Positions 16,114 through 27,910 of a stretch of DNA of 64,000 nucleotides are shown in pieces; within the stretch, counting starts at the first letter, position 1, and the number at the start of each line of letters is the position of its first letter. Source of the DNA: Vulcanimicrobiota bacterium (lineage in GTDB: Bacteria > Vulcanimicrobiota > Vulcanimicrobiia > Vulcanimicrobiales > Vulcanimicrobiaceae); the NCBI GenBank assembly GCA_963820825.1, contig CAWGBN010000008.1:416001-480000 (forward strand). The letters are read 5' to 3'. The notes beneath the pieces were generated by a model, which saw only the letters and a program-made list of their open reading frames with translations, had not been told where the DNA came from and made no database searches. Position numbers and translations under genes: made by a program.

Positions 16114-17520
16114 GTGAGAACTCTCGTCATATCCGCCGCCCTGCTTGCTCTCGTCTTCGAATCGGCCTGCTCCGGGCAGGCGCCCGACCTCGTAACCGCG
16201 CGTGTGACCCGCGAGCCGATCGCGCAGACCGTAACCGCGTCGGGCACGCTGGCAGCACAAGACACCGTCTTGGTCGGCTCCCAAGTCTCGGGAACGATTC
16301 AGACGCTCTACGTCGATTACAACAGCCCGGTTCGTACGGGACAGGTGCTGGCGCGTCTCGATCCCAGCTTATTCGTCGCCGCGCTCGACCAAGCGAAAGG
16401 AACGCTCGGACAGCTCGAGGCGCAGAGCTCGGCGTCCTCGTCGTCGCTCTCGAGCTCGCTCTACAGCAGCTCGGCGGCTGCCGAGACCGCGCAATCGCAG
16501 CGCAAGCTGATCGTCGCGGCCGACGAAGACGTTCGCAAGACGCGCAGCGCTCTAGATCTTACGCTCTTGACGCTGCGGCGCGACCGCGCGCTGCTGCGTC
16601 AGGGCTACGTCGCGCAGAACGTGGTCGACAGCGATGTAACCGCGGTCGCAACGGCCCACGACGCCTATATCGCGGCGCAGACGTCGGCAAAGACCTCGCG
16701 TTACTCGAGCGCGGCGAGCGGCTACCAGGCCGGCAGCTCCGCCGCGCAAGCGAACGCAGCCGCATCCTCGGCACGCGCAAGCGATTCCGCAGTTCGTGCG
16801 GCAGAAGCGGCCGTGCGGCAAGCGCAGATCAATCTCGACCACGCTACGATCGTCTCTCCGGTCGACGGAACCGTCATCCAGCGCAACGTCTCGGTCGGCC
16901 AGACCGTCGCCGCGGCGCTCCAAGCGCCGACGCTCTTTACCATCGCGAAGAATCTCGCCAAGATGGAACTCGATATCGCCGTCGGCGAACCCGACGTCGG
17001 CGCCGTACGCGCCGGTCAGCGCGTATCGTTCACGGTGCTGGCCTATCCAGGCCGAACGTTCCTGGCGACGATCGATCAGGTGCGGCAGAATCCGACGGTC
17101 GTCAACAACGTCACGACCTACGATACGGTCGCGTATCCGAATAATCGCGACGGCGCGCTTCGCCCGGGAATGACCGCGAACGCGCAGATCACGATCGAAG
17201 ACTATCCCAACGCGGCGGTCCTTCCGCTCGCCGCGCTGCAGTGGCGACCTACTGCCGCCGTCGCAAAGCGGTACCGCATCGTCCCAGCACCCAACGGCGG
17301 CGAAGGCATTCCTGTAGGCTCGTCGGCGTGGGGGGCGACCGGCGCGACCGCAAACTTTGCGGTAGCGGTGGGGGCGCAAGGGAGCTGTTACGTGCTCGAA
17401 AACCGTACGCTGCGCGGCGTCGGCGTAACCGTGCTCGCGATCGACGGAACGCGGGTCGGCGTCAAAGTCGATGCCGGGCGTCTCGCGCCGGGCGATAACG
17501 TCGTCGTCGACATGCAATGA
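16114..17520 (+). CDS. MacA-type periplasmic adaptor (membrane fusion) lipoprotein
   Basis: Lipobox-like SAC, VGSQVSG.I..LYVDYNSPV..GQ, coiled coil, SPVDG.VI, LRPGMTA. Confidence 0.9.
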   Translation: MRTLVISAALLALVFESACSGQAPDLVTARVTREPIAQTVTASGTLAAQDTVLVGSQVSGTIQTLYVDYNSPVRTGQVLARLDPSLFVAALDQAKGTLGQLEAQSSASSSSLSSSLYSSSAAAETAQSQRKLIVAADEDVRKTRSALDLTLLTLRRDRALLRQGYVAQNVVDSDVTAVATAHDAYIAAQTSAKTSRYSSAASGYQAGSSAAQANAAASSARASDSAVRAAEAAVRQAQINLDHATIVSPVDGTVIQRNVSVGQTVAAALQAPTLFTIAKNLAKMELDIAVGEPDVGAVRAGQRVSFTVLAYPGRTFLATIDQVRQNPTVVNNVTTYDTVAYPNNRDGALRPGMTANAQITIEDYPNAAVLPLAALQWRPTAAVAKRYRIVPAPNGGEGIPVGSSAWGATGATANFAVAVGAQGSCYVLENRTLRGVGVTVLAIDGTRVGVKVDAGRLAPGDNVVVDMQ

Positions 17521-18225
17521 CTGCCACGATCGAAACCCACGATCTCTCCCGAATCTTCCGTACCGGCAAGACGGTGTTCGCCGCCGTCGACCGCGTCACC
17601 TTCGAGCTTGCGCCCGGCGAGTTCACCGCGATCATGGGACCGTCGGGCTCCGGCAAGTCGACCTTCATGAACGTCATCGGATGTCTCGATCGTGCCACCT
17701 CGGGGAGCTACGCTCTCGACGGCATCGACGTCGCGACGCAGACGCCCGAACAGCTCGCGGAGCTGCGCCGCAACAAGATCGGCTTCGTCTTTCAGCAGTA
17801 CAACCTGCTCCCGCGCACGAGCGCGCTGGAGAACGTCGAGCTGCCGATGATGTACGCCTCGGTCGCAGCCGGGCAGCGGCGCGCTCGCGCGACCGATGCG
17901 CTCCTCGACGTCGGGCTCGACGAGCCGCATCACCACTGTAATCCGAACGAGCTCTCCGGCGGCCAGCAGCAGCGCGTCGCCATCGCTCGCGCGCTCGTCA
18001 ACAAGCCCAGCTTGATTCTCGCCGACGAGCCGACCGGCGCGCTCGATTCGAAGACGTCGGCAGAGATCATGAAACTCTTCTTGCGCCTCAATCGCGAGCG
18101 CCGGATGACGATCCTCATGGTGACGCACGAGCTCGATGTCGCCCGCTACTCCAATCGCATCGTCTCGTTTCACGACGGCCGCATCGTCAAGACGAACCGG
18201 TCTTACGCGAAGCATCGGCGATCTC

Positions 18226-18229
<4 letters not shown>
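17517..18229 (+). CDS. MacB/LolD-type ABC ATP-binding protein (apparent frameshift near 18190)
   Basis: GPSGSGKS, LSGGQQQR, ILADEPTG, VTHE. Likely true stop is TGA 18227-18229 overlapping the permease GTG. Confidence 0.9.
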
Positions 18230-19448
<1,219 letters not shown>

Positions 19449-19527: not shown

Positions 19528-20451
19528 ATGTTCACAAAGCTTTTGGTCGCCCTCGACGGCTCCCCGTGCGCCGAGCGCGCTTTCGAACTCGCGATGCGGC
19601 TCGCAAAGCTCGAAGGATCGAGACTCATTCTCTGCTCGGTCGCCGACCCGGCGCCGGTTTACGGCAGTCTCCAGCCCAACACCCTCATCGAGCATACGCT
19701 CGAGGAGATCCACCAGGAAGCCGAGCGCGTCGCCGGCGATGCCGCCGTTCGAGCGAAGGCCGCGGGCATCGTTGCCGAGGCGTGCGTCTTCGAAGGCGAA
19801 CCCGTCCATCAGATCGTTTCGCACGCCGCTGCGGCGCCGGTTGACGGAATCGTCATCGGCACGCACGGCCGCTCCGGATTCGCTCGCCTCTTTATGGGAA
19901 GCGTCGCCGAAGGCGTGCTCCGGGATGCGACGGTGCCGGTGATCGTCGTGCGGGCGGAGGCGAGCCTTGCGCCGCTTGCGCCCGACGCGACCTTCATCAC
20001 CCGAGTTCTCGTGCCTGTCGATGGCTCGGAGAACTCCCTGCGCGCAATCGACGTCGCCGTCGAGCTCGCCGCGAGCGCCGGCGCGGAAGTCGTCGTCGGT
20101 CACGCGATCAATCTCGGCGAGGCCGCGATGCTTAGCGGCGGTGAGGCGCAACTTCTGGCCGGCTGCCTAGAACTCGTCAAGGAGAAGGGCCAACACGTCC
20201 TCGCTGAAGCGCTCGCGCGCATCGGCAACCGCGTCCCCGCATCGTCTCAGATCGGCGAGGGCGAGCCGGTCGAGGCCATCGCGCAGCTCGTCGCGGAAGT
20301 CAAGCCGGAGTTCGTCGTCTGCGGAAGTCACGGACGCACGGGCTTGAACCGCGCGTTCATGGGCAGCGTCGCCGAGAGCGTGCTGCGCCACGCGCCGGTT
20401 CCCGTGATCGTCGTTCCGGCGAAGAGTATTAATAGTGTATCAGCGGCTTGA
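19528..20451 (+). CDS. Tandem-domain universal stress protein
   Basis: Two USP domains, each with DGS and G(T/S)HGR..GSVAE. Confidence 0.93.
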   Translation: MFTKLLVALDGSPCAERAFELAMRLAKLEGSRLILCSVADPAPVYGSLQPNTLIEHTLEEIHQEAERVAGDAAVRAKAAGIVAEACVFEGEPVHQIVSHAAAAPVDGIVIGTHGRSGFARLFMGSVAEGVLRDATVPVIVVRAEASLAPLAPDATFITRVLVPVDGSENSLRAIDVAVELAASAGAEVVVGHAINLGEAAMLSGGEAQLLAGCLELVKEKGQHVLAEALARIGNRVPASSQIGEGEPVEAIAQLVAEVKPEFVVCGSHGRTGLNRAFMGSVAESVLRHAPVPVIVVPAKSINSVSAA

Positions 20452-21040
20452 GAAATCGTCTCACCACGAGGACGACGACTGCGCCGCCAACCGCCGCGTA
20501 GAAAGCGAGCGCTGCATGCGCGCCCAGCGCCAAATACGTTCCAATCGCGAGGCCGAAAACTACTGCGATCGCGATGCTCGTCAACTGGTCGATTCCCCAG
20601 CGAATCTCGTCCGCCGGCAATTCGGCACGACGAACGACCAACCCAACAAGCAACATCGCACCGGCCAACGTGTAGACGATCGCCAATGAGAAGACGCACA
20701 TGCTCAGAAGGTGAGCTGGATTCTGGCCCAGTTCCGCGACGCGCACGGTGCTTTCAAAGAAAAATAGCGTCAGGATGAGCGTGCAGAGCATTCCAAAGTT
20801 CATCAGGATCATCGGTGCTTTAGGCACGAAGAACGAGCTAAACGTTCGGTGATGAAGCCACCAGAGCACCGCGATAAAGATAAATGCCGATATGAAGAAC
20901 GTGATGCTTTCCCAAAGGCCGAACATATCGGTTGCGTTCTTCGGCAGCACGAGATTTAGACCGAGTTGCGCGAGGCAGAATCCGATAACGATGTCGGAAA
21001 AGGCTTCGAGCCGGTGGGTGGTGTGCTGCGAACCGGTCAT
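20429..21040 (-). CDS. TMEM175/DUF1211 family (K+ channel-like) membrane protein
   Basis: RLEAFSD motif and W..HH..F; about 6 TM segments. Confidence 0.8.
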   Translation of the reverse strand: MTGSQHTTHRLEAFSDIVIGFCLAQLGLNLVLPKNATDMFGLWESITFFISAFIFIAVLWWLHHRTFSSFFVPKAPMILMNFGMLCTLILTLFFFESTVRVAELGQNPAHLLSMCVFSLAIVYTLAGAMLLVGLVVRRAELPADEIRWGIDQLTSIAIAVVFGLAIGTYLALGAHAALAFYAAVGGAVVVLVVRRFLKPLIHY

Positions 21041-21063: not shown

Positions 21064-21765
21064 TTACGGGCGGCGGAGTTTGTAGCCGACGCCGTAGACG
21101 GTGACGACGTACGCCGGATTACGGTTGTCGGCTTCGATCTTTTTTCGCAGGTTGTTGATGTGACGGTCGAGCGTCCGTTCGTAGATCGTTCCGGAGTCCT
21201 GCAGACGATCGAGCATTACTGCACGCGTGAAGACTTCGCCGGGGCTGCTCGCCAGCACCGCGAGGATTCGAAACTCGGTTGCGGTGACGTTCGCCGTCCT
21301 TCCGCCGACGCGTATCTCGTGTGAGGCGAGGTCGATCTCCAGGTCGCCGATGCGCACGAGGTTTGCAGCACCAGGCTCCCCAGGCTTGTGCTCCTCGACA
21401 CGCCGCAGCAGCGCGCGAATGCGCGCCATCAACTCGCGCGGCGAGAACGGTTTGGTCATGTAGTCGTCGGCGCCGAGCTCCAGGCCGACGATGCGATCGG
21501 ACTCTTCGCCGCGTGCGGTGAGCATGATCGCCGGGACGCGCCGGCCGCTCGCCGCCGTTTCGCGCAGGACGTCGAGCCCGCTCCCGTCGGGCAAGCCGAC
21601 GTCGAGGATCATCATCTCGGGTTTCGACTCACGAATCAGCGCGAGTCGCCTCGCCACGGTCGTGCAGAGCGTCGTGATGCGAAACCGTCGCGGTCGCAGA
21701 TAGCTCTCGACGACTTCTGCGACTTTCGGCTCGTCCTCGACGACGAGGACGCGCTTGCCGTCCAT
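21064..21765 (-). CDS. OmpR/BaeR-family response regulator (compensating frameshifts near 21650-21695)
   Basis: VLVVEDE, ILDVGLPD, GLELGADDY.TKPFSPREL, RTLDRHINNLRKKIE, TVYGVGY. Confidence 0.92.
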   Translation of the reverse strand: MDGKRVLVVEDEPKVAEVVESYLRPRRFRITTLCTTVARRLALIRESKPEMMILDVGLPDGSGLDVLRETAASGRRVPAIMLTARGEESDRIVGLELGADDYMTKPFSPRELMARIRALLRRVEEHKPGEPGAANLVRIGDLEIDLASHEIRVGGRTANVTATEFRILAVLASSPGEVFTRAVMLDRLQDSGTIYERTLDRHINNLRKKIEADNRNPAYVVTVYGVGYKLRRP

Positions 21766-21770
21766 CGGTC

Positions 21771-23411
21771 TTACCAGGTTCGCATTCCCGGCGCGAGGTA
21801 TCCGGGATGGCGCAGAGTTCGCCGAGCGGCCCGGCGTACGCAAGGATCGCGAGCACGAGCGCGAGCGACGCCCCAGCGATAGAGGCTGCTGCAGCGGCCG
21901 CGGCGTCGTCACGCTCGCACTCGGCGGCGTTGCGAACACCACGTCGGGATCTGCGTCGGTTCTCGGTTCTTGACCAGCGTGCCGATCGCGACGGCGACGA
22001 ACGTACAGCGATGCTCAGGAAGAGGAAGAAACCGCCGGCCGCTGCGAGCAGCATGTACGGTTGCCAGGCGTTGGCCGCCGCGGCGCCCATGTAGTCGACT
22101 TCCGCGGTGCGCCGCGGCGCGCCGAGCAGGCCGGCGTAGTGCATCGAGAACGACATGATCAGCATGCCGAAGAACCAGAGACGCGTCTGAAAGAGCGCCC
22201 ACTCCGGCTTCCAGAGCGCGCGGCCGGTCAGCCGCGGAATCAGCCAGTAGGCGGCACCGAGGAACGTCAGCGCGACCGGGCCGCCGACGGTTACGTGAAA
22301 GTGACCGACGATCCAGATCGTGTTGTGCACGACCGTATCCATGCTGTACGACGCGTTGACCAGACCGCCGAAGCCGCCCAGGATGAAGAGGATCATGCCC
22401 AGCGCCGCACCGCTGAAGGTCGGGTCGTTCCAGGGCAGCGCCTTGACCGTGCCGATGAATCCGCGGCGTCCCTGTTTGATCGCGAAGAGCTCGAACGACG
22501 CGAAGATCGCAAAGGCGGTGATGAACGACGGAATCGCGACGCCGTACGTCGTGATCGTGTGCAGCATCTTCCAAACCGACGAGATGCCCGGCTCCATGAA
22601 CTCGTGATGGATGCCGACCGGCGTCGAGAGCAGGATCAGCATGATGAAGGTCAGCCGCGTCAGCGCGTCGCTAAAGACGTTTCCGCCGTAGCGCGTCGGA
22701 ATGATGTTATACCAAATGATGTAGGCGCCCATGATCCAGAAGTAGACCAGCGGATGGCCGAAGTACCAGAAGAACATCCGCGTCAGCATGACGTTGATGC
22801 CGGAGGTCCAGCCGAAGGCCCACGGGATCAGAAGGACCATCTCGGCGACGACGCCGAGCGTCGCGACGATCCACATGACGAACGTCGCGGCGGCGCAAAA
22901 GACGACGAGCGGAACCGGCTTGCCGGGATTCGTGCTTCCGGAAATAGTTGACGTTGGCGAAGATCTCGAAGGCGACGACCCAGGTGCCCAGCACCAGCAG
23001 CGTCGCGCCGACGTAGAACCACGGACTCGCTTTGAGCGGCGCGTAGAACGTGTAGAGCACGGTCGCGTCGCCCTTGAGGATCGTGACCGCGGCCATCGCG
23101 GTGCCGAGCAGCATGAGCCACCAGCCGAACCATCCGACGGCGAGGCTGCGCGTCGCGCGGTATCGCGCGGTAGGTTACGAAGAGCGATAGCCCGGTGATG
23201 AAGAACGTCGTGAAGACGAGCGCCATCAGCACGCCGTGCATCGTGAGCATGCGATAGTAGTCGAACCAACGCCGGCGCGCCGAAGGCGCCGGTGCGCGAA
23301 AATCCTTGAAAGACGCCGAAGATCGCGCCCGAGCGCGATCGCCGCCGTCGCGGTATAGATGTGCGCGATGATGACGCGGTTCTCGTTGCGAACTGCGTCT
23401 GACCCGGTCAC
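21771..23411 (-). CDS. cbaA: Cytochrome ba3-type (B-family) heme-copper oxidase subunit I, several frameshifts
   Basis: YYRMLTMHGVLMALVFTTFFI, VLYTFYAPL, FWYFGHPLVYFW, GIHHEF, HNTIWIVGHFH, GAPRRT. Confidence 0.92.
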
Positions 23412-23881
23412 TTATTTCACCTCGATCTTGGCAAACATGTTCTGATGGCCGAGTCCCGCAGTATTCGTGGCAGAGCAGTAGGTAGTCACCGGCGTGCGTG
23501 AACGTGTGCGTCTCCTCGTTCACCCAGCCGGGAACGACCATCATGTTGATGTCGGTTCGGGAATGAAGAAGCCGTGGACGACGTCCGCGCTCGTGACGTA
23601 GAACGTCACCCTGCTTCCGACCGGAACGTGCAGATCGGCCGGGTCGAATTCGAAGACGCGCGCGACGTAGTAGGCCTCGTACGATCCGTCCGCGCGCCGG
23701 TGCAGCCCGGGCTTGTCGAACGGCGGCGTCTGAGCGACCTTCGTGGGATCGATCTGCTGCATATCCGATGGGCGGATTGATGTTGTCGGCAAAGGCCGCA
23801 AAGGCGATCAACCCTAGGAAAAATGACGAGCATCCCCACGCCGAAGGTCAGCCACCAGCGTTCGTATCGGTGAATCTGCAT
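23412..23881 (-). CDS. cbaB: ba3-type oxidase subunit II (CuA), frameshifted
   Basis: MQIHRYERWW, IDP, TSADVVHGF, NMMVVPG, CHEYCG..HQNM. Confidence 0.9.
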
Positions 23882-23882
23882 C

Positions 23883-23997
23883 TTACCAGCGCACCCGCAG
23901 CAAGCACGTACATCGCGAACCAGAGAACCAGGAACGTCGCGCCCATTACAAAGACGAAGCGCAGCGTTCCGATGAGGGGAGCTTCTTCGTCTTTCAT
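23883..23997 (-). CDS. ba3-type oxidase small subunit IIa (about 37 aa, one frameshift)
   Basis: MKDEEAPLIGTLRFVFVMGATFLVLWFAMY: single TM helix directly before subunit II. Confidence 0.75.
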
Positions 23998-24464
23998 GAG
24001 CTCGTCGCACTCGATTTCGACTGCTCGTCGCGCAGGTAGGCCGTTTCGAGCTCGGAAGCGATCCGCTCCAGCAACGCCTGCGCGGTTACGGTTGCGATGC
24101 GACGGCCGATCGTGGCGTCGAAGGCCGCGCCCAGCACGCCGCCCGGGGGACGGTACGATCCCCGGAGCTCGAGCTGCGACGTCTCGTAGTTTTCGTCGGC
24201 GCGCACGGTCAGCTCGCCGTCGAACTCCGGATAGGGTCCCGCTTTCGGCTTCCAGTGCAGCCGCCACGGTTGGTCGAAATGCATCGGATCGTTCGCGGCG
24301 TCGTAGGTAACGACCACCTCGCGCACCAGATCCGCGCCCGGGAGCGCGGCGGTGAGGGTCAGCGTCCCGGGCGCACCGGTGCGAGCGGCGACAGCGCGCG
24401 CGAGATGACGCTGCGCGAGATGGTAGGGGCAGCGGACAATGCGCCGTTCCAGAAGCTCTGACAT
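23994..24464 (-). CDS. Hypothetical protein (possible SRPBCC-like fold), first gene of the ba3 operon
   Basis: W.P....P.F.G.L.V, L.GSY.PP.G..G..FDA.IG.RIA shared with 27461..27910. Confidence 0.75.
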   Translation of the reverse strand: MSELLERRIVRCPYHLAQRHLARAVAARTGAPGTLTLTAALPGADLVREVVVTYDAANDPMHFDQPWRLHWKPKAGPYPEFDGELTVRADENYETSQLELRGSYRPPGGVLGAAFDATIGRRIATVTAQALLERIASELETAYLRDEQSKSSATSS

Positions 24465-24547: not shown

Positions 24548-25246
24548 CTAGGGTCTCTTCATTTTATAGCCGACGCCGTAGACGGTCACGATGTACTCGG
24601 GATTGCGCGGGTCCTTCTCGACCTTCTTGCGCAGGTTGTTGATGTGCCGGTCGAGCGTCCGCTCGTAGATCTCACCGTCGTCGCCGAGGCGGTCGAGCAG
24701 ATGCGAGCGGGTGAAGACCTCCCCCGGATTCTCCGCCAAGAGGGTAACGATCTTGAACTCGGTCGCCGTTAGATTCGCCGGCGCTCCGGCGACGCTGACC
24801 TCGTGAAAGTTGTGGTCGATCTCGAGCTCGCCGATGCGCGTTCGCCGGTTATTCTTGTGGCCGGTGGTCTGCTCTTCGGCCGTTCGGCGCAGGAGCGCGC
24901 GCACGCGCGCCACCACCTCGCGCGGCGAGAACGGCTTGGAGACGTAATCGTCGGCGCCGAGTTCCAAGCCGACGACCCGATCGGCTTCGTCGGAACGCGC
25001 GGTGAGCATGATCGTCGGAACGCGCGCGTTGGGCACCGAGACCGACCGAAGCACGTCGAGCCCGCTGCCGTCGGGCAGCGTGATGTCGAGCACGAGGACG
25101 TCGGGCGTGGAGCGCGCGATCGCCGCCGTCGCTTCGGCGACGTTCCCGCAGACGTCCACGATCATCCCCTCGCGCTCGAGATAGGCCTTGAGTACCTCGG
25201 CAATCTGCGGCTCGTCGTCGACCAGCAGAACCCGGCGTCGCTCCAT
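24548..25246 (-). CDS. OmpR/BaeR-family response regulator
   Basis: VLLVDDE, VLDITLPD, GADDYVSKPFSPREV, RTLDRHINNLRKKVE. ATG overlaps the upstream stop (TGATG). Confidence 0.94.
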   Translation of the reverse strand: MERRRVLLVDDEPQIAEVLKAYLEREGMIVDVCGNVAEATAAIARSTPDVLVLDITLPDGSGLDVLRSVSVPNARVPTIMLTARSDEADRVVGLELGADDYVSKPFSPREVVARVRALLRRTAEEQTTGHKNNRRTRIGELEIDHNFHEVSVAGAPANLTATEFKIVTLLAENPGEVFTRSHLLDRLGDDGEIYERTLDRHINNLRKKVEKDPRNPEYIVTVYGVGYKMKRP

Positions 25247-25422
25247 CAGAGCCCGTCCTGCCCCTGCAAGAGGTCGCGGGCTCCGCGCAGCGCGTCGGCG
25301 ACAGCCTCGAGCCGCGCCGGCGTCGGTGCGACCAGACCGTCGGCCATTCCCTCCACGTTGGCCAGAGCGACGGCTAACAGATTGCCGAGCTCGTGGCGAA
25401 CCGTCTCGCGACCCTCCTTCAT
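25246..25422 (-). CDS. Stand-alone HisKA/DHp mini-protein (58 aa), absent from the ORF track
   Basis: MKEGRETVRHELGNLLAVALANVEGMADGLVAPTPARLEAVADALRGARDLLQGQDGL: H-box plus BaeS-like E...DG...TP..L. Stop overlaps the RR start. Confidence 0.75.
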   Translation of the reverse strand: MKEGRETVRHELGNLLAVALANVEGMADGLVAPTPARLEAVADALRGARDLLQGQDGL

Positions 25423-25505
25423 TCTTTATTGGTAATCCGAGATTGGGCGGCTCGGGCCCTATCGAAACGGAGCCGCCAGCGGCAGAGCGAAGACCCGAGA
25501 AGTTC

Positions 25506-26651
25506 ATGGATGAGTCACTCTTTTCGCTCCGGGATATTGCGGGGAGCAGGTTCCCGCTGCTCGAGCACGCTCCGGACGCGACGATCATCGTCGACGGCGA
25601 GGGGATCATCCAGCTGGTCAACGCGCAGACCGAGCGGCTCTTCGGCTACTATCGCGAGGAGCTCATCGGCCAGGCCATCGAGATGCTCATCCCCAAGCGG
25701 TTCCACTCCCGGCACGTCGTGGAGCGAAAGGAGTACGCGTCCGAGCCGCGCGTCCGGCCGATGGGCGTCGGCCTCGAGCTCTTCGGCCTGCGCAAGGACG
25801 GCAGCGAGTTCCCGGTCGAGATCAGCTTGAGTCCGATCGCCACGCGCGAGGGGACCTTTATCGCCGGCGCGATTCGCGACGTGACCGAGCGCAAGGCGTT
25901 CGAAGCGCGCCTGCAGAGCCTCAATGCAGAGCTCGAGAAGGCGAGTCGCGCAAAAGACCAGTTCCTCGCCTCGATGAGCCACGAGCTGCGTACGCCGCTC
26001 AACGCCATTCTCGGCTTCACCGGAACCCTGCTCATGAAACTTCCGGGACCCCTCAACGAAGAGCAGGAGCGTCAGCTTCAAATCGTTCAATGGAGCGCCC
26101 GCCATCTGCTCTCGCTGATCAACGATATTCTCGATTTGGCCAAGGTGCAATCGGGAAAGCGCGAGCTTACCTACGAGCGAGTTCCGGTCAAAGAGGTGGT
26201 GGGAGACGTTGCCGCCTCGCTGGCATCGCTGGCCGAAGAGAAGGGTCTTGCATTCTCCCATGCCGTTGCGCCCAGCGCGGAGTTCGTTACGACCGACCGC
26301 CGCAGTCTGCGTCAGATCCTGCTGAACCTTACGCAGAATGCGATCAAGTTTACGGAACGCGGCGTCGTGCGAATCGACGTCAGCGCCGTCACGCGCAATG
26401 GGAGCGCGCGGCTCGCCATGAGCGTGATCGACACCGGCATCGGTATCAAGGGTGAGGACCTCGCACGCCTCTTCGAAGCCTTCGAACAGCTCGCCACGTC
26501 GAACGAGCGGCGTTTCGAAGGTACGGGGCTCGGACTTCATCTCTCGCGCACCCTCGCCGAACTTCTCGAGGGCGAGTTAACCGTTGCGAGCGAGCACGGG
26601 AAGGGGAGCACGTTTACGCTGACCTTGCCCCTGGCCGGCGCCGAGGGATAA
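25506..26651 (+). CDS. Cytoplasmic PAS (FixL-like) sensor histidine kinase
   Basis: PAS LIPKRFHSRH...RKDGSEFPVEISLS, H-box SHELRTPL, NAIKFT, DTGIGI, GTGLGL; no TM segment. Confidence 0.92.
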   Translation: MDESLFSLRDIAGSRFPLLEHAPDATIIVDGEGIIQLVNAQTERLFGYYREELIGQAIEMLIPKRFHSRHVVERKEYASEPRVRPMGVGLELFGLRKDGSEFPVEISLSPIATREGTFIAGAIRDVTERKAFEARLQSLNAELEKASRAKDQFLASMSHELRTPLNAILGFTGTLLMKLPGPLNEEQERQLQIVQWSARHLLSLINDILDLAKVQSGKRELTYERVPVKEVVGDVAASLASLAEEKGLAFSHAVAPSAEFVTTDRRSLRQILLNLTQNAIKFTERGVVRIDVSAVTRNGSARLAMSVIDTGIGIKGEDLARLFEAFEQLATSNERRFEGTGLGLHLSRTLAELLEGELTVASEHGKGSTFTLTLPLAGAEG

Positions 26652-27023
26652 GTGGTGCGAATCCTCGTTATCGACGACAATCCTGCGAATCTCGACCTGA
26701 TGCTCTACCTGCTGCGTGCTTTCGGCCACGAGGTCGAAGCGGCCGCCGACGGTCTCGCCGGATACGAAGCGCTCCAGCGCGATGGCTACGACCTCGTGTT
26801 GACCGATATTCTCATGCCGGGGATCGACGGTTATGAATTCGTGCGCCGCGTGAAGAGCGACGCTCGCTTCGCGTCGACGCCGGTCGTCGCGGTAACGGCG
26901 TTGGCGATGGACGCCGATCGCGCGCGAGTCGGTGCAGCCGGCTTCGACGGCTATATCACCAAGCCGATCGACCCCCAGCACTTCGTCGGCGAAATCGAGT
27001 CCTTTTTGGCGGGCCGCTTCTAG
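26652..27023 (+). CDS. Single-domain response regulator (DivK-like)
   Basis: VIDDN, LTDILMPG, AVTALAM, GFDGYITKPID. Confidence 0.9.
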   Translation: MVRILVIDDNPANLDLMLYLLRAFGHEVEAAADGLAGYEALQRDGYDLVLTDILMPGIDGYEFVRRVKSDARFASTPVVAVTALAMDADRARVGAAGFDGYITKPIDPQHFVGEIESFLAGRF

Positions 27024-27029
27024 CGACCG

Positions 27030-27398
27030 ATGGCGACCGTGCTCGTTGCCGACGACGATCGCCACACGCGCTTTCTCGTCAAGACCGTCCTCACGCACGT
27101 CGGGCACACCGTGATCGAGGCCGCCGACGGCGCCGACGCACTCACGCGTGCCCGCACCGAGACGCCCGACCTGATCCTGCTCGATCTTTCGATGCCGGGG
27201 ATGAGCGGCCCCGAATTTATCCGCGCGCTCCGCGCCGATCCGCGCACGCAGCCGACCAAAGTCGCCCTCTACACCGCGACGCCGTTGAACGCCGCGCTTC
27301 GCGATTTCATGGAGATCTACGGAATCGAACACGTCGTGCCCAAACCGGCCGAGCCCGCGCAACTGATCGAGGCAATAGAACGCGCCCTCTCCGGGTAA
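27030..27398 (+). CDS. Single-domain response regulator
   Basis: VADDD, LLDLSMPG, YTA, KP. Confidence 0.88.
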   Translation: MATVLVADDDRHTRFLVKTVLTHVGHTVIEAADGADALTRARTETPDLILLDLSMPGMSGPEFIRALRADPRTQPTKVALYTATPLNAALRDFMEIYGIEHVVPKPAEPAQLIEAIERALSG

Positions 27399-27460: not shown

Positions 27461-27910
27461 ATGCCGCGGTTAAGTGATAGGACCGCGATCGATTGTTCCG
27501 TGGAGCAAGCGTCGAAGGGGATCGATTGCTTTTTAGATTCGCTCAAAGGGAGAGACGGAGTCGCGCGTCTTCGCCTGCGCGTTCCCGCCGACGGACCGAT
27601 GCTCGGTATCGCGATCGACCGAGAGGTTCGGATCGAGGTGCGTCCGCCATCTGAGGTCGGCGGGGCTATGGCGATGGGTTGGAAGCCCGAGGGAACGGTC
27701 GCTCTTCCAACGTTCGAGGGGACGCTCGTTGCACAGAGCGACGGAGATCCGAATGTAACGTACCTCGACCTCGACGGCTCCTACACGCCGCCTTTCGGCG
27801 CGGCGGGACAACTCTTCGACGCGGCCATCGGCAAACGCATCGCGCAAGCGACGGCGCGCGAGTTTCTCAAAGACCTCAAGGCCGCAATCGAAAAATCCCT
27901 GTCATCCTGA
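27461..27910 (+). CDS. Hypothetical protein, paralog of 23994..24464
   Basis: WKPEG..LPTFEGTL, LDGSYTPPFGAAG.LFDAAIGKRIA. Confidence 0.75.
   Translation: MPRLSDRTAIDCSVEQASKGIDCFLDSLKGRDGVARLRLRVPADGPMLGIAIDREVRIEVRPPSEVGGAMAMGWKPEGTVALPTFEGTLVAQSDGDPNVTYLDLDGSYTPPFGAAGQLFDAAIGKRIAQATAREFLKDLKAAIEKSLSS

Follow-up and report, generated by a model that had tools for sequence, protein, structure and literature searches.

The window analysed here, a stretch of 64,000 nucleotides from a soil bacterium of the Vulcanimicrobiota (contig CAWGBN010000008.1, positions 416,001 to 480,000), contains a 58-codon gene, mini-DHp, which is real and under selection, as judged from its copies in 42 genomes, their fixed start and stop positions and a low dN/dS. 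On balance, we lean towards reading its product as a minimal, probably bifunctional phosphotransferase of the Spo0B/ChpT/PhyT kind, through which phosphate would pass from a PAS kinase to a receiver, to His10 and then to an OmpR-type regulator. More tentatively, mini-DHp may be the smallest natural DHp-type phosphotransferase, and phosphorelays may have been born repeatedly in the following way: a receiver-bearing PAS kinase would arrive, the ATPase (CA) domain would erode stepwise, and the DHp would become a free, kinase-fused or START-fused relay station. The features of the locus are given in Table 1.

Table 1. Features of the mini-DHp locus, in coordinates of the window
Feature	Position	Strand	Remarks
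RR2, second OmpR-family regulator	21064..21765	-	60% identical to RR1; Asp invariant in 18/18
Haem-copper oxidase subunit II and I genes	21629..24010	-	Co-oriented, downstream of RR1; frameshifted in the assembly
START/SRPBCC (helix-grip) fold protein	23994..24464	-	Downstream of RR1
RR1, OmpR-family regulator (REC + Trans_reg_C)	24548..25246	-	Asp54 invariant in 42/42
mini-DHp	25246..25422	-	58 aa; two-helix hairpin; His10 and H+4 Asn14; no sensor or ATPase domain
Divergent intergenic region	25423..25508	.	Conserved two-box DNA motif
Divergent cytoplasmic PAS-HisKA-HATPase kinase	25506..26651	+	Motifs intact; His in 43/43
REC1, single-domain receiver	26652..27023	+	Asp52 invariant in 40/40
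REC2, single-domain receiver	27030..27398	+	Asp52 invariant in 60/60
Second START-like protein	27461..27910	+	End of the kinase-receiver operon

A short gene maintained by purifying selection

The preliminary description had pointed to a 58-aa frame with His10 at this place, and the translation of the window contains the peptide that it quoted. The overlap which it reported between the TGA of mini-DHp and the ATG of RR1 is present in the window, but it is not conserved across the genus: a one-base overlap occurs at 5 of the 31 loci with a located regulator start, and the other 26 have gaps of 0-7 nt (10 loci have no located start). The assembly has many frameshifts, and an artefactual origin of mini-DHp was therefore checked. 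Of the 67 candidates from a near-length protein search (the query counted), 63 are 50-64 aa long and match at E<=0.01; by their labels, the homologs come from Candidatus Cybelea and Eremiobacteraeota. One copy each is present in 42 of the 91 genus genomes, without internal stops and in open frames of 40-171 aa, and in none of the genus genomes does a full kinase take its place. The H-box is visible at 41 of the 42 fetched genus loci, the remaining locus being cut. At 41/41 loci an ATG or GTG lies 7-9 codons ahead of the His and a stop 45-51 codons past it.

The conservation pattern is that of a coding sequence. His10 is found in 40/40 genus sequences, Glu at H+1 in 39/40 and Asn at H+4 in 40/40, and mini-DHp contains the HisKA motif H-D/E-x-x-T/N (PMC7005713; papers cited by PMC number are represented here by excerpts). 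The median pairwise dN/dS is 0.138 (40 distinct sequences, 46 codons) and that of the RR1 receiver 0.226 (60 codons, 37 sequences), and the three other frames of mini-DHp give 1.2-3.8; all these ratios are rough, as synonymous sites are near saturation. Second codon positions are invariant at 23/46 codons, compared with 1/46 for third positions. Thus, the conservation of His and frame and the syntenic homologs of about 60 aa, to which the preliminary description had looked for confirmation, were both found, with RR1 following the gene at each of the 42 genus loci.

Frequent single-base frameshifts were also seen in ABC transporter, oxidase and kinase genes (17517-19448 and 21629-24010 of the window, and other contigs). 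This pattern is typical of an unpolished long-read assembly, and apparent split genes there deserve distrust.

Domain class and predicted structure

The HisKA profile of Pfam (PF00512), suggested as a check in the preliminary description, gives a weak match to mini-DHp (14.2 bits, E 0.046) that lies below the gathering cut-off of 26.9, and the gene is absent from the 11 HisKA matches of its own genome. A search of NCBIfam gave no match, and a PDB sequence search gave 7 chance matches (best E 0.42). The AlphaFold monomer is a hairpin of two helices (residues 2-27 and 35-57, pLDDT 90), for which the top Foldseek matches include the DHp domains of HK853 and SrrB, none of them at E<=0.001. From what is known of DHp domains, mini-DHp presumably forms a homodimer with a four-helix bundle; a complex prediction of two mini-DHp copies with REC2 reached a median of 0.29 against a mark of 0.32.

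Two assignments were rejected. Membership of the Hpt family (PF01627) is ruled out by the lack of an Hpt match and by a predicted fold of only two helices instead of a monomeric four-helix bundle. Membership of BaeS/BaeR fails because mini-DHp has no match and both its relatives and RR1 fall far below the NCBIfam cut-offs. Full-length relatives match BaeS/PnpS models, with 124-129 bits for BaeS_SmeS (cut-off 500), and so the BaeS-class resemblance proposed in the preliminary description is a loose one. Its view of the regulator as BaeR-like needs qualifying: RR1 scores 194.7 bits against BaeR (cut-off 380), CreB scores higher, and on these profile scores RR1 is an OmpR-family regulator, not BaeR proper.

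Gene neighbourhood

RR1 lies directly after mini-DHp at 42/42 genus loci and is the ancestral cognate partner and the predicted final acceptor. On the other side, an intact divergent PAS kinase, the predicted phosphate source, is found at 39 of the 41 loci having upstream DNA, normally followed by REC1 and REC2; of the remaining two, one has a kinase stub and one has no kinase. The genome of the locus without a kinase (G007) carries the cluster on another contig. REC2 and mini-DHp each occur in 42 of the 91 genus genomes, 41 of which have both, and the two mismatches are contig ends. REC1 was not found in one genome (G105) that keeps REC2 and mini-DHp, and for this reason REC2 is preferred to REC1 as the donor: REC2 is the best candidate intermediate, and REC1 is a candidate intermediate or sink. 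RR2, which has no adjoining kinase gene, is a possible second acceptor. In the window's own genome (85% complete), neither an Hpt protein nor a second member of the DHp family of mini-DHp was found; a stand-alone matching ATPase gene was found neither there nor at the 42 genus loci.

Two genomes of irregular layout were seen. In G024 (74% complete), an RR1-like gene has no mini-DHp within 14 kb, and REC2 was not found in that genome either. In G031, one contig has the regulator and kinase cluster without mini-DHp. The two half-loci of this genome (L089 and L095) are complementary, one with mini-DHp, regulator and kinase stub and the other with regulator and kinase cluster but no mini-DHp, and may represent a duplication with reciprocal loss or a mixed bin.

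The two-box motif lies just upstream of the mini-DHp start, its boxes being 23-24 nt apart at 21/42 loci, and is a candidate promoter or regulator site; a sigma-70 promoter scan of the same intergenic region gave no match. No ribosome-binding site is obvious by eye before the mini-DHp start, and a leaderless transcript or a regulator site is possible. The oxidase genes likely belong to the regulated island, and Usp genes also occur near the locus.

Several further features of the surroundings were observed. In some genera, three single-domain receivers, not two, stand behind the PAS kinase (L122, L123, L132, L155, L160-L164). Proteins of the START/SRPBCC fold form an unannotated family that is common in the phylum; several of them often lie close to the relay, and they have a Cys-Pro motif whose Cys is kept in 38/39. 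A TMEM175-like potassium channel gene (20429-21040, Pfam E 1e-9) lies directly downstream of RR2, a position in which it was seen only here and in a single close relative.

States of the ATPase domain across the family

The homolog of mini-DHp in many sister genera, and also in two outgroup families, is a sensorless kinase with DHp and CA domains, usually encoded just downstream of a related regulator. By sequence comparison, mini-DHp descends from a BaeS-like DHp+CA kinase without a sensor, which other genera have kept intact. The preliminary description had reasoned that a full-length kinase in relatives would make the gene a deletion remnant or an artefact. No such kinase occurs within the genus, in line with its reading, yet other genera do have the full sensorless kinase, and for these two reasons mini-DHp is seen as an old truncation kept by purifying selection rather than a recent leftover or an error of assembly.

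The family profile matches 145 of 234 family genomes (a tally that includes two unpublished genomes, on which no other result depends). Beyond the genus there are 111 genomes with a match, and the gene was read in 91 of them. The CA domain may be intact, lack its G-boxes (in genera other than that of the window only), be reduced to a 121-residue stub or be missing altogether, the DHp then standing with or without an N-terminal helical hairpin. In a tree of 101 DHp+regulator rows, there are two lineages with intact and dead forms mixed in each. The tree needs at least 16 state changes (one frameshifted intact gene being scored dead), and the AU test rejects a topology with all CA-dead copies in one clade (p 1.6e-130). 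The tree itself gives no direction; we infer that the change is loss of CA. In a 50%-identity library, 82 of the best 150 of 263 matches end within 70 residues of the H-box, where short matches may include contig fragments, and 11 have both G-boxes.

One genome holds a tandem array of three regulator-kinase pairs (L031:3409-9296, L032:6467-12091, L033:7962-13775), in which one kinase has an intact CA, one a G-box-less CA and one no CA and no His; the regulator of the His-less copy has shifted specificity residues. The N-terminal hairpin, of about 50 residues, precedes the DHp in one lineage (L018-L021, L105-L164) and is kept in many CA-less copies, but is absent from the genus of the window. 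Intact ancestors (L022, L040-L050 of family f3, and many f1 loci) have conserved Cys pairs before and within CA, and they often end in a C-terminal CxxC and adjoin oxidase and Usp genes. A redox- or metal-sensing function of these sensorless kinases is possible.

CA state and feeder kinases

We defined a feeder as an ortholog of REC1 or of a PAS-kinase-REC hybrid. Outside the genus, a feeder is present in 53 of the 59 genomes with a stand-alone CA-dead DHp, compared with 4 of the 27 intact-only genomes (Fisher p 1e-11, inflated by kinship). Within the lineage of the window gene, a REC1 ortholog occurs in 41/46 CA-dead genomes versus 2/10 intact-only ones; in the other lineage, 12/13 CA-less genomes have a feeder (11 hybrids at >=56% identity and one REC1 cluster) versus 2/17 intact-only ones. 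Feeders mostly differ between the two deep lineages, kinase plus single receivers in one and hybrid in the other, where the hybrid usually lies near the CA-less copy. Five genomes whose only visible CA-less copy is a hybrid fusion were left out of these counts as circular, and five full-length genes with one motif off pattern, as well as one frameshifted gene, were counted as intact. Only 5 independent pairs lie on supported branches; of these, 3.8-3.9 agree and 0-0.1 oppose (median p 0.125; rows of family f2 and two intact rows from fusion genomes were omitted).

Exceptions occur on both sides. No feeder was found in six CA-dead genomes (G145, G148, G202, G204, G255 and G238, the last with a cut contig), and intact kinases occur together with a feeder in G178, G200, G261 and G274. 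In outgroup family f3, 5/12 genomes have a REC1 ortholog alongside an intact kinase, and at the 4 loci fetched this ortholog lies beside a PAS kinase. Hpt domains are encoded elsewhere in the genome in 4 of the 5 hybrid-bearing genomes examined.

Fusions were seen as well. In 6 genomes, spread over 4 genera, an in-frame fusion places a DHp that has its His but no CA in front of a PAS-kinase-REC hybrid (six complete copies, one truncated at the end of a contig and one short). A CA-less DHp is fused to a START-fold domain in three database proteins (P0064-P0066), and a fusion in G241 reads the same as P0064; the START domain of all these proteins is a homolog of the START/SRPBCC protein encoded downstream of RR1. 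Hybrids of the order DHp-PAS-DHp-CA-REC, whose additional N-terminal DHp bears a His and lacks a CA, were noted at L178:5005-7242, L179:4850-6291, L180:4096-5817, L182:4822-6987, L183:5657-8164, L185:5694-7865 and L199:3689-5968. Several of them are divergent from an OmpR-type regulator, and their built-in putative transfer domain is not an Hpt.

Specificity residues

Specificity positions were taken from PDB titles and placed with a receiver offset that is our assumption. At the receiver-facing positions of the DHp and the alpha-1 positions of the regulator, there is no change after CA loss. No signature was found in the sequences that would mark a new receiver partner once CA is lost, and the DHp surface has not shifted towards the differing alpha-1 residues of REC1 and REC2. 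The DHp of the PAS kinase is alike in outgroup genomes with intact kinases, with no sign of rewiring to RR1. By-eye inspection of REC1 and REC2 did not reveal a motif of the FATGUY type, as described for intermediate receivers in an excerpt of PMC9981736. His and the H+4 Asn are unchanged in all f1 copies, and at H+1 a drift from Glu to Asp follows the loss of CA (21 Asp and 34 Glu versus 2 and 31; p 0.0009, with kin not independent).

Comparison with known systems

Spo0B and ChpT both retain a CA-like alpha/beta domain, and the ChpT chain in PDB entry 4fmt has 208 residues. The position of the mini-DHp stop (41/41 loci) leaves no such degenerate domain of the Spo0B/ChpT/PhyT class, and the PDB sequence search gave no match to Spo0B or ChpT. 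The claims that the gene encodes a DHp only, with a conserved His, coupled to a response regulator and smaller than Spo0B and ChpT, were borne out. Lacking both a degenerate CA and a sequence match, mini-DHp is not placed as a member of the Spo0B/ChpT/PhyT class, though it would work alike. What is new is that it lacks even the degenerate ATPase domain of the known DHp-type phosphotransferases.

In the split kinases Rv0600c/Rv0601c-TcrA and the CheA-type Hik36/Hik43 (PMC7656254), the phosphoacceptor is encoded apart from the ATPase, as in mini-DHp, but they have a dedicated ATPase partner gene, and none was found for mini-DHp in its 85%-complete genome or at the 42 genus loci. A close parallel is PhyT (PhyP) of Sphingomonas melonis, in which phosphate runs from Pak kinases to SdrG, PhyT and PhyR (PMC5898713). 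Like mini-DHp, PhyT is a kinase-derived DHp protein with a conserved His, encoded beside its regulator and served by a single-domain receiver as donor (a prediction in the case of mini-DHp); it was first taken for a phosphatase (PMC5898713). Unlike mini-DHp, PhyT is membrane-anchored, with a putative sensor, a degenerate ATPase domain and an H-box of the HWE type according to excerpts of its description, whereas mini-DHp has no sensor and no CA, is of the HisKA type and works beside an OmpR-family regulator.

Spo0B and ChpT are DHp-type His transfer proteins from degenerated kinases, an origin also considered for PhyT, and the excerpts name no intermediates (PMC5898713, PMC5231405). In contrast to Spo0B and ChpT, intact, eroding and minimal forms coexist in the mini-DHp family, and the loss is repeated. 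In its gene content, the family also repeats both known layouts: a kinase with single receivers (KinA-Spo0F-Spo0B-Spo0A) and a hybrid kinase (CckA-ChpT-CtrA). Proteins classed as 'stand-alone HisKA' phosphotransfer proteins in P2CS resemble mini-DHp in having a His-bearing HisKA-like domain without an ATPase, as do archaeal 'HisKA, no HATPase' proteins, which differ in having PAS/GAF sensors. A role in phosphotransfer or as phosphatases has been speculated on in print for such proteins (PMC4618731, PMC9953108, PMC5847659). As excerpted, these classes are annotation bins that are rare per genome, whereas mini-DHp is a conserved, selected family below the Pfam cut-off with a defined set of partners. 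The DHp-only domain A of EnvZ and EnvZ[AAB] resemble the natural forms in being an isolated or an extra fused DHp; they are laboratory constructs, and the activity of the isolated DHp is disputed (PMC8971529). Literature searches of partial coverage gave no published description of the mini-DHp family or of a natural relay with a bare DHp.

How new signalling architectures arise has been called unclear, with relays being simplified and a repeated invention of the Spo0 relay judged unlikely (PMC6136694, excerpt). Here, a single small family spans intact kinases, forms without G-boxes, stubs, bare DHps and fusions, with at least two lineages involved. Such a graded, repeated series of losses opens the origin of phosphorelays to testing: one can ask if a bare DHp is able to relay, if a relay can do without the pseudo-ATPase domain and at what step a kinase turns into a transfer protein. 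The proteins are small and predicted to be soluble, and their reconstitution in E. coli would be feasible. The family also represents a class of relay components that pipelines miss, being under 60 aa and scoring too low for the Pfam cut-off, and it could supply synthetic circuits with a part of 58 aa.

Proposed phosphorelay and alternative explanations

In the relay that we propose, mini-DHp would be a histidine phosphotransferase pared down to the DHp hairpin. The sensorless kinase of RR1 would have shed its ATPase domain when phosphate became available from another kinase. The divergent PAS kinase would autophosphorylate and pass its phosphate to a single-domain receiver (REC2, perhaps REC1), from which it would move to His10 of mini-DHp and on to Asp54 of RR1, and perhaps to RR2 too. 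Dephosphorylation of RR1 through the kept His/H+4 Asn motif is probably an additional role of mini-DHp. The START-fold neighbour may tune it, and the oxidase and Usp neighbours allow a guess that the signal may be redox or oxygen.

The relay is the simplest fit, because RR1 needs a phosphate source, ATP can no longer be bound by its own kinase, the residues that face the regulator have stayed the same and the PAS kinase gives no sign of rewiring. Every phosphoacceptor along the route is invariant (His10, the kinase His and the Asp of REC1, REC2 and RR1). The co-occurrence with feeders, the in-frame hybrid fusions, the layout in the genus and the window's own 85%-complete genome, in which neither an Hpt nor a second DHp member was found, point the same way, and PhyT, a degenerate kinase that relays phosphate from SdrG~P to PhyR, provides a precedent (PMC5898713). 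Against the relay, the co-occurrence within the genus may reflect inheritance of one island, the DHp has not shifted towards REC1 or REC2, the independent pairs are only 5, and there are the feeder exceptions, the f3 genomes with REC1 as well as an intact kinase, the CA-less f2 copies without a His (3/3), the G031 contig with a kinase cluster but no mini-DHp and the Hpt domains in 4/5 hybrid genomes. The preliminary description had left open a role as phosphotransferase, phosphatase or decoy; the gene context of the family favours phosphotransfer from the PAS kinase and receivers, which it had not mentioned.

A dedicated phosphatase or phosphate drain for RR1 and RR2 is a rather unlikely alternative. 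Cross-talk, small phosphodonors or direct action of the PAS kinase would then phosphorylate the regulators, and mini-DHp would only remove the phosphate, by hydrolysis or back into REC1 and REC2. Conservation does not separate this from the relay, since His-x-x-x-Asn is also the phosphatase motif of HisKA proteins (PMC7005713), and it is these two residues that are fixed in f1 while H+1 drifts. CA-less HK853 was active as a phosphatase in vitro at pH 8 (reported second-hand in PMC7005713), and the unchanged regulator-facing residues of the DHp would suit such an activity. However, phosphatase activity is stimulated by a nucleotide-bound CA (PMC7005713), and the DHp of EnvZ alone was inactive as a phosphatase in one cell test, contrary to an earlier report (PMC8971529). 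A phosphatase would also leave the kinase needed for RR1 unexplained, the DHp of the PAS kinase showing no rewiring, and it gives no account of why CA loss tracks receiver-bearing kinases or of the hybrid fusions.

It is still less probable that mini-DHp is a non-catalytic decoy or adaptor, which would sequester RR1 or the kinase DHp, perhaps under START control, and keep its His for binding and not for chemistry. CA-less copies can persist without relaying, as in family f2, where they have lost the His in 3/3 and remain beside regulators. DHp-START fusions exist, and EnvZ variants devoid of catalytic activity reduced output through sequestration (PMC8971529). Yet no genus sequence has lost the His (kept in 40/40), nor has any of the 56 CA-less copies compared outside f2, a set that includes 12 genus rows, and feeder kinases would be superfluous for a pure decoy.

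We regard as improbable the view of mini-DHp as half of a split kinase, whose His10 would be phosphorylated in trans by a stand-alone CA or by the CA of the PAS kinase in a heterodimer; it would leave the receivers unexplained. The PAS kinase gene does adjoin mini-DHp, an engineered EnvZ with an additional DHp stays active (PMC8971529), and two-gene kinases such as Rv0600c/Rv0601c are known (PMC3544749). In the 85%-complete genome, however, no CA of the family of mini-DHp was found (best match to other kinases <=42%), the one short HATPase frame near the kinase type belongs to a GAF kinase, as its frameshifted end, and the H+1 residue used in autophosphorylation drifts. Finally, the idea that mini-DHp is a nonfunctional leftover of a deleted kinase, or an artefact of the assembly, is largely refuted and would be very surprising: assembly frameshifts are many and homologs elsewhere are full kinases, but the same short gene recurs, its start and stop positions fixed, in 41 further genomes, and its dN/dS of 0.138 and the excess of invariant second over third codon positions (23/46 versus 1/46) are those of a gene under constraint.
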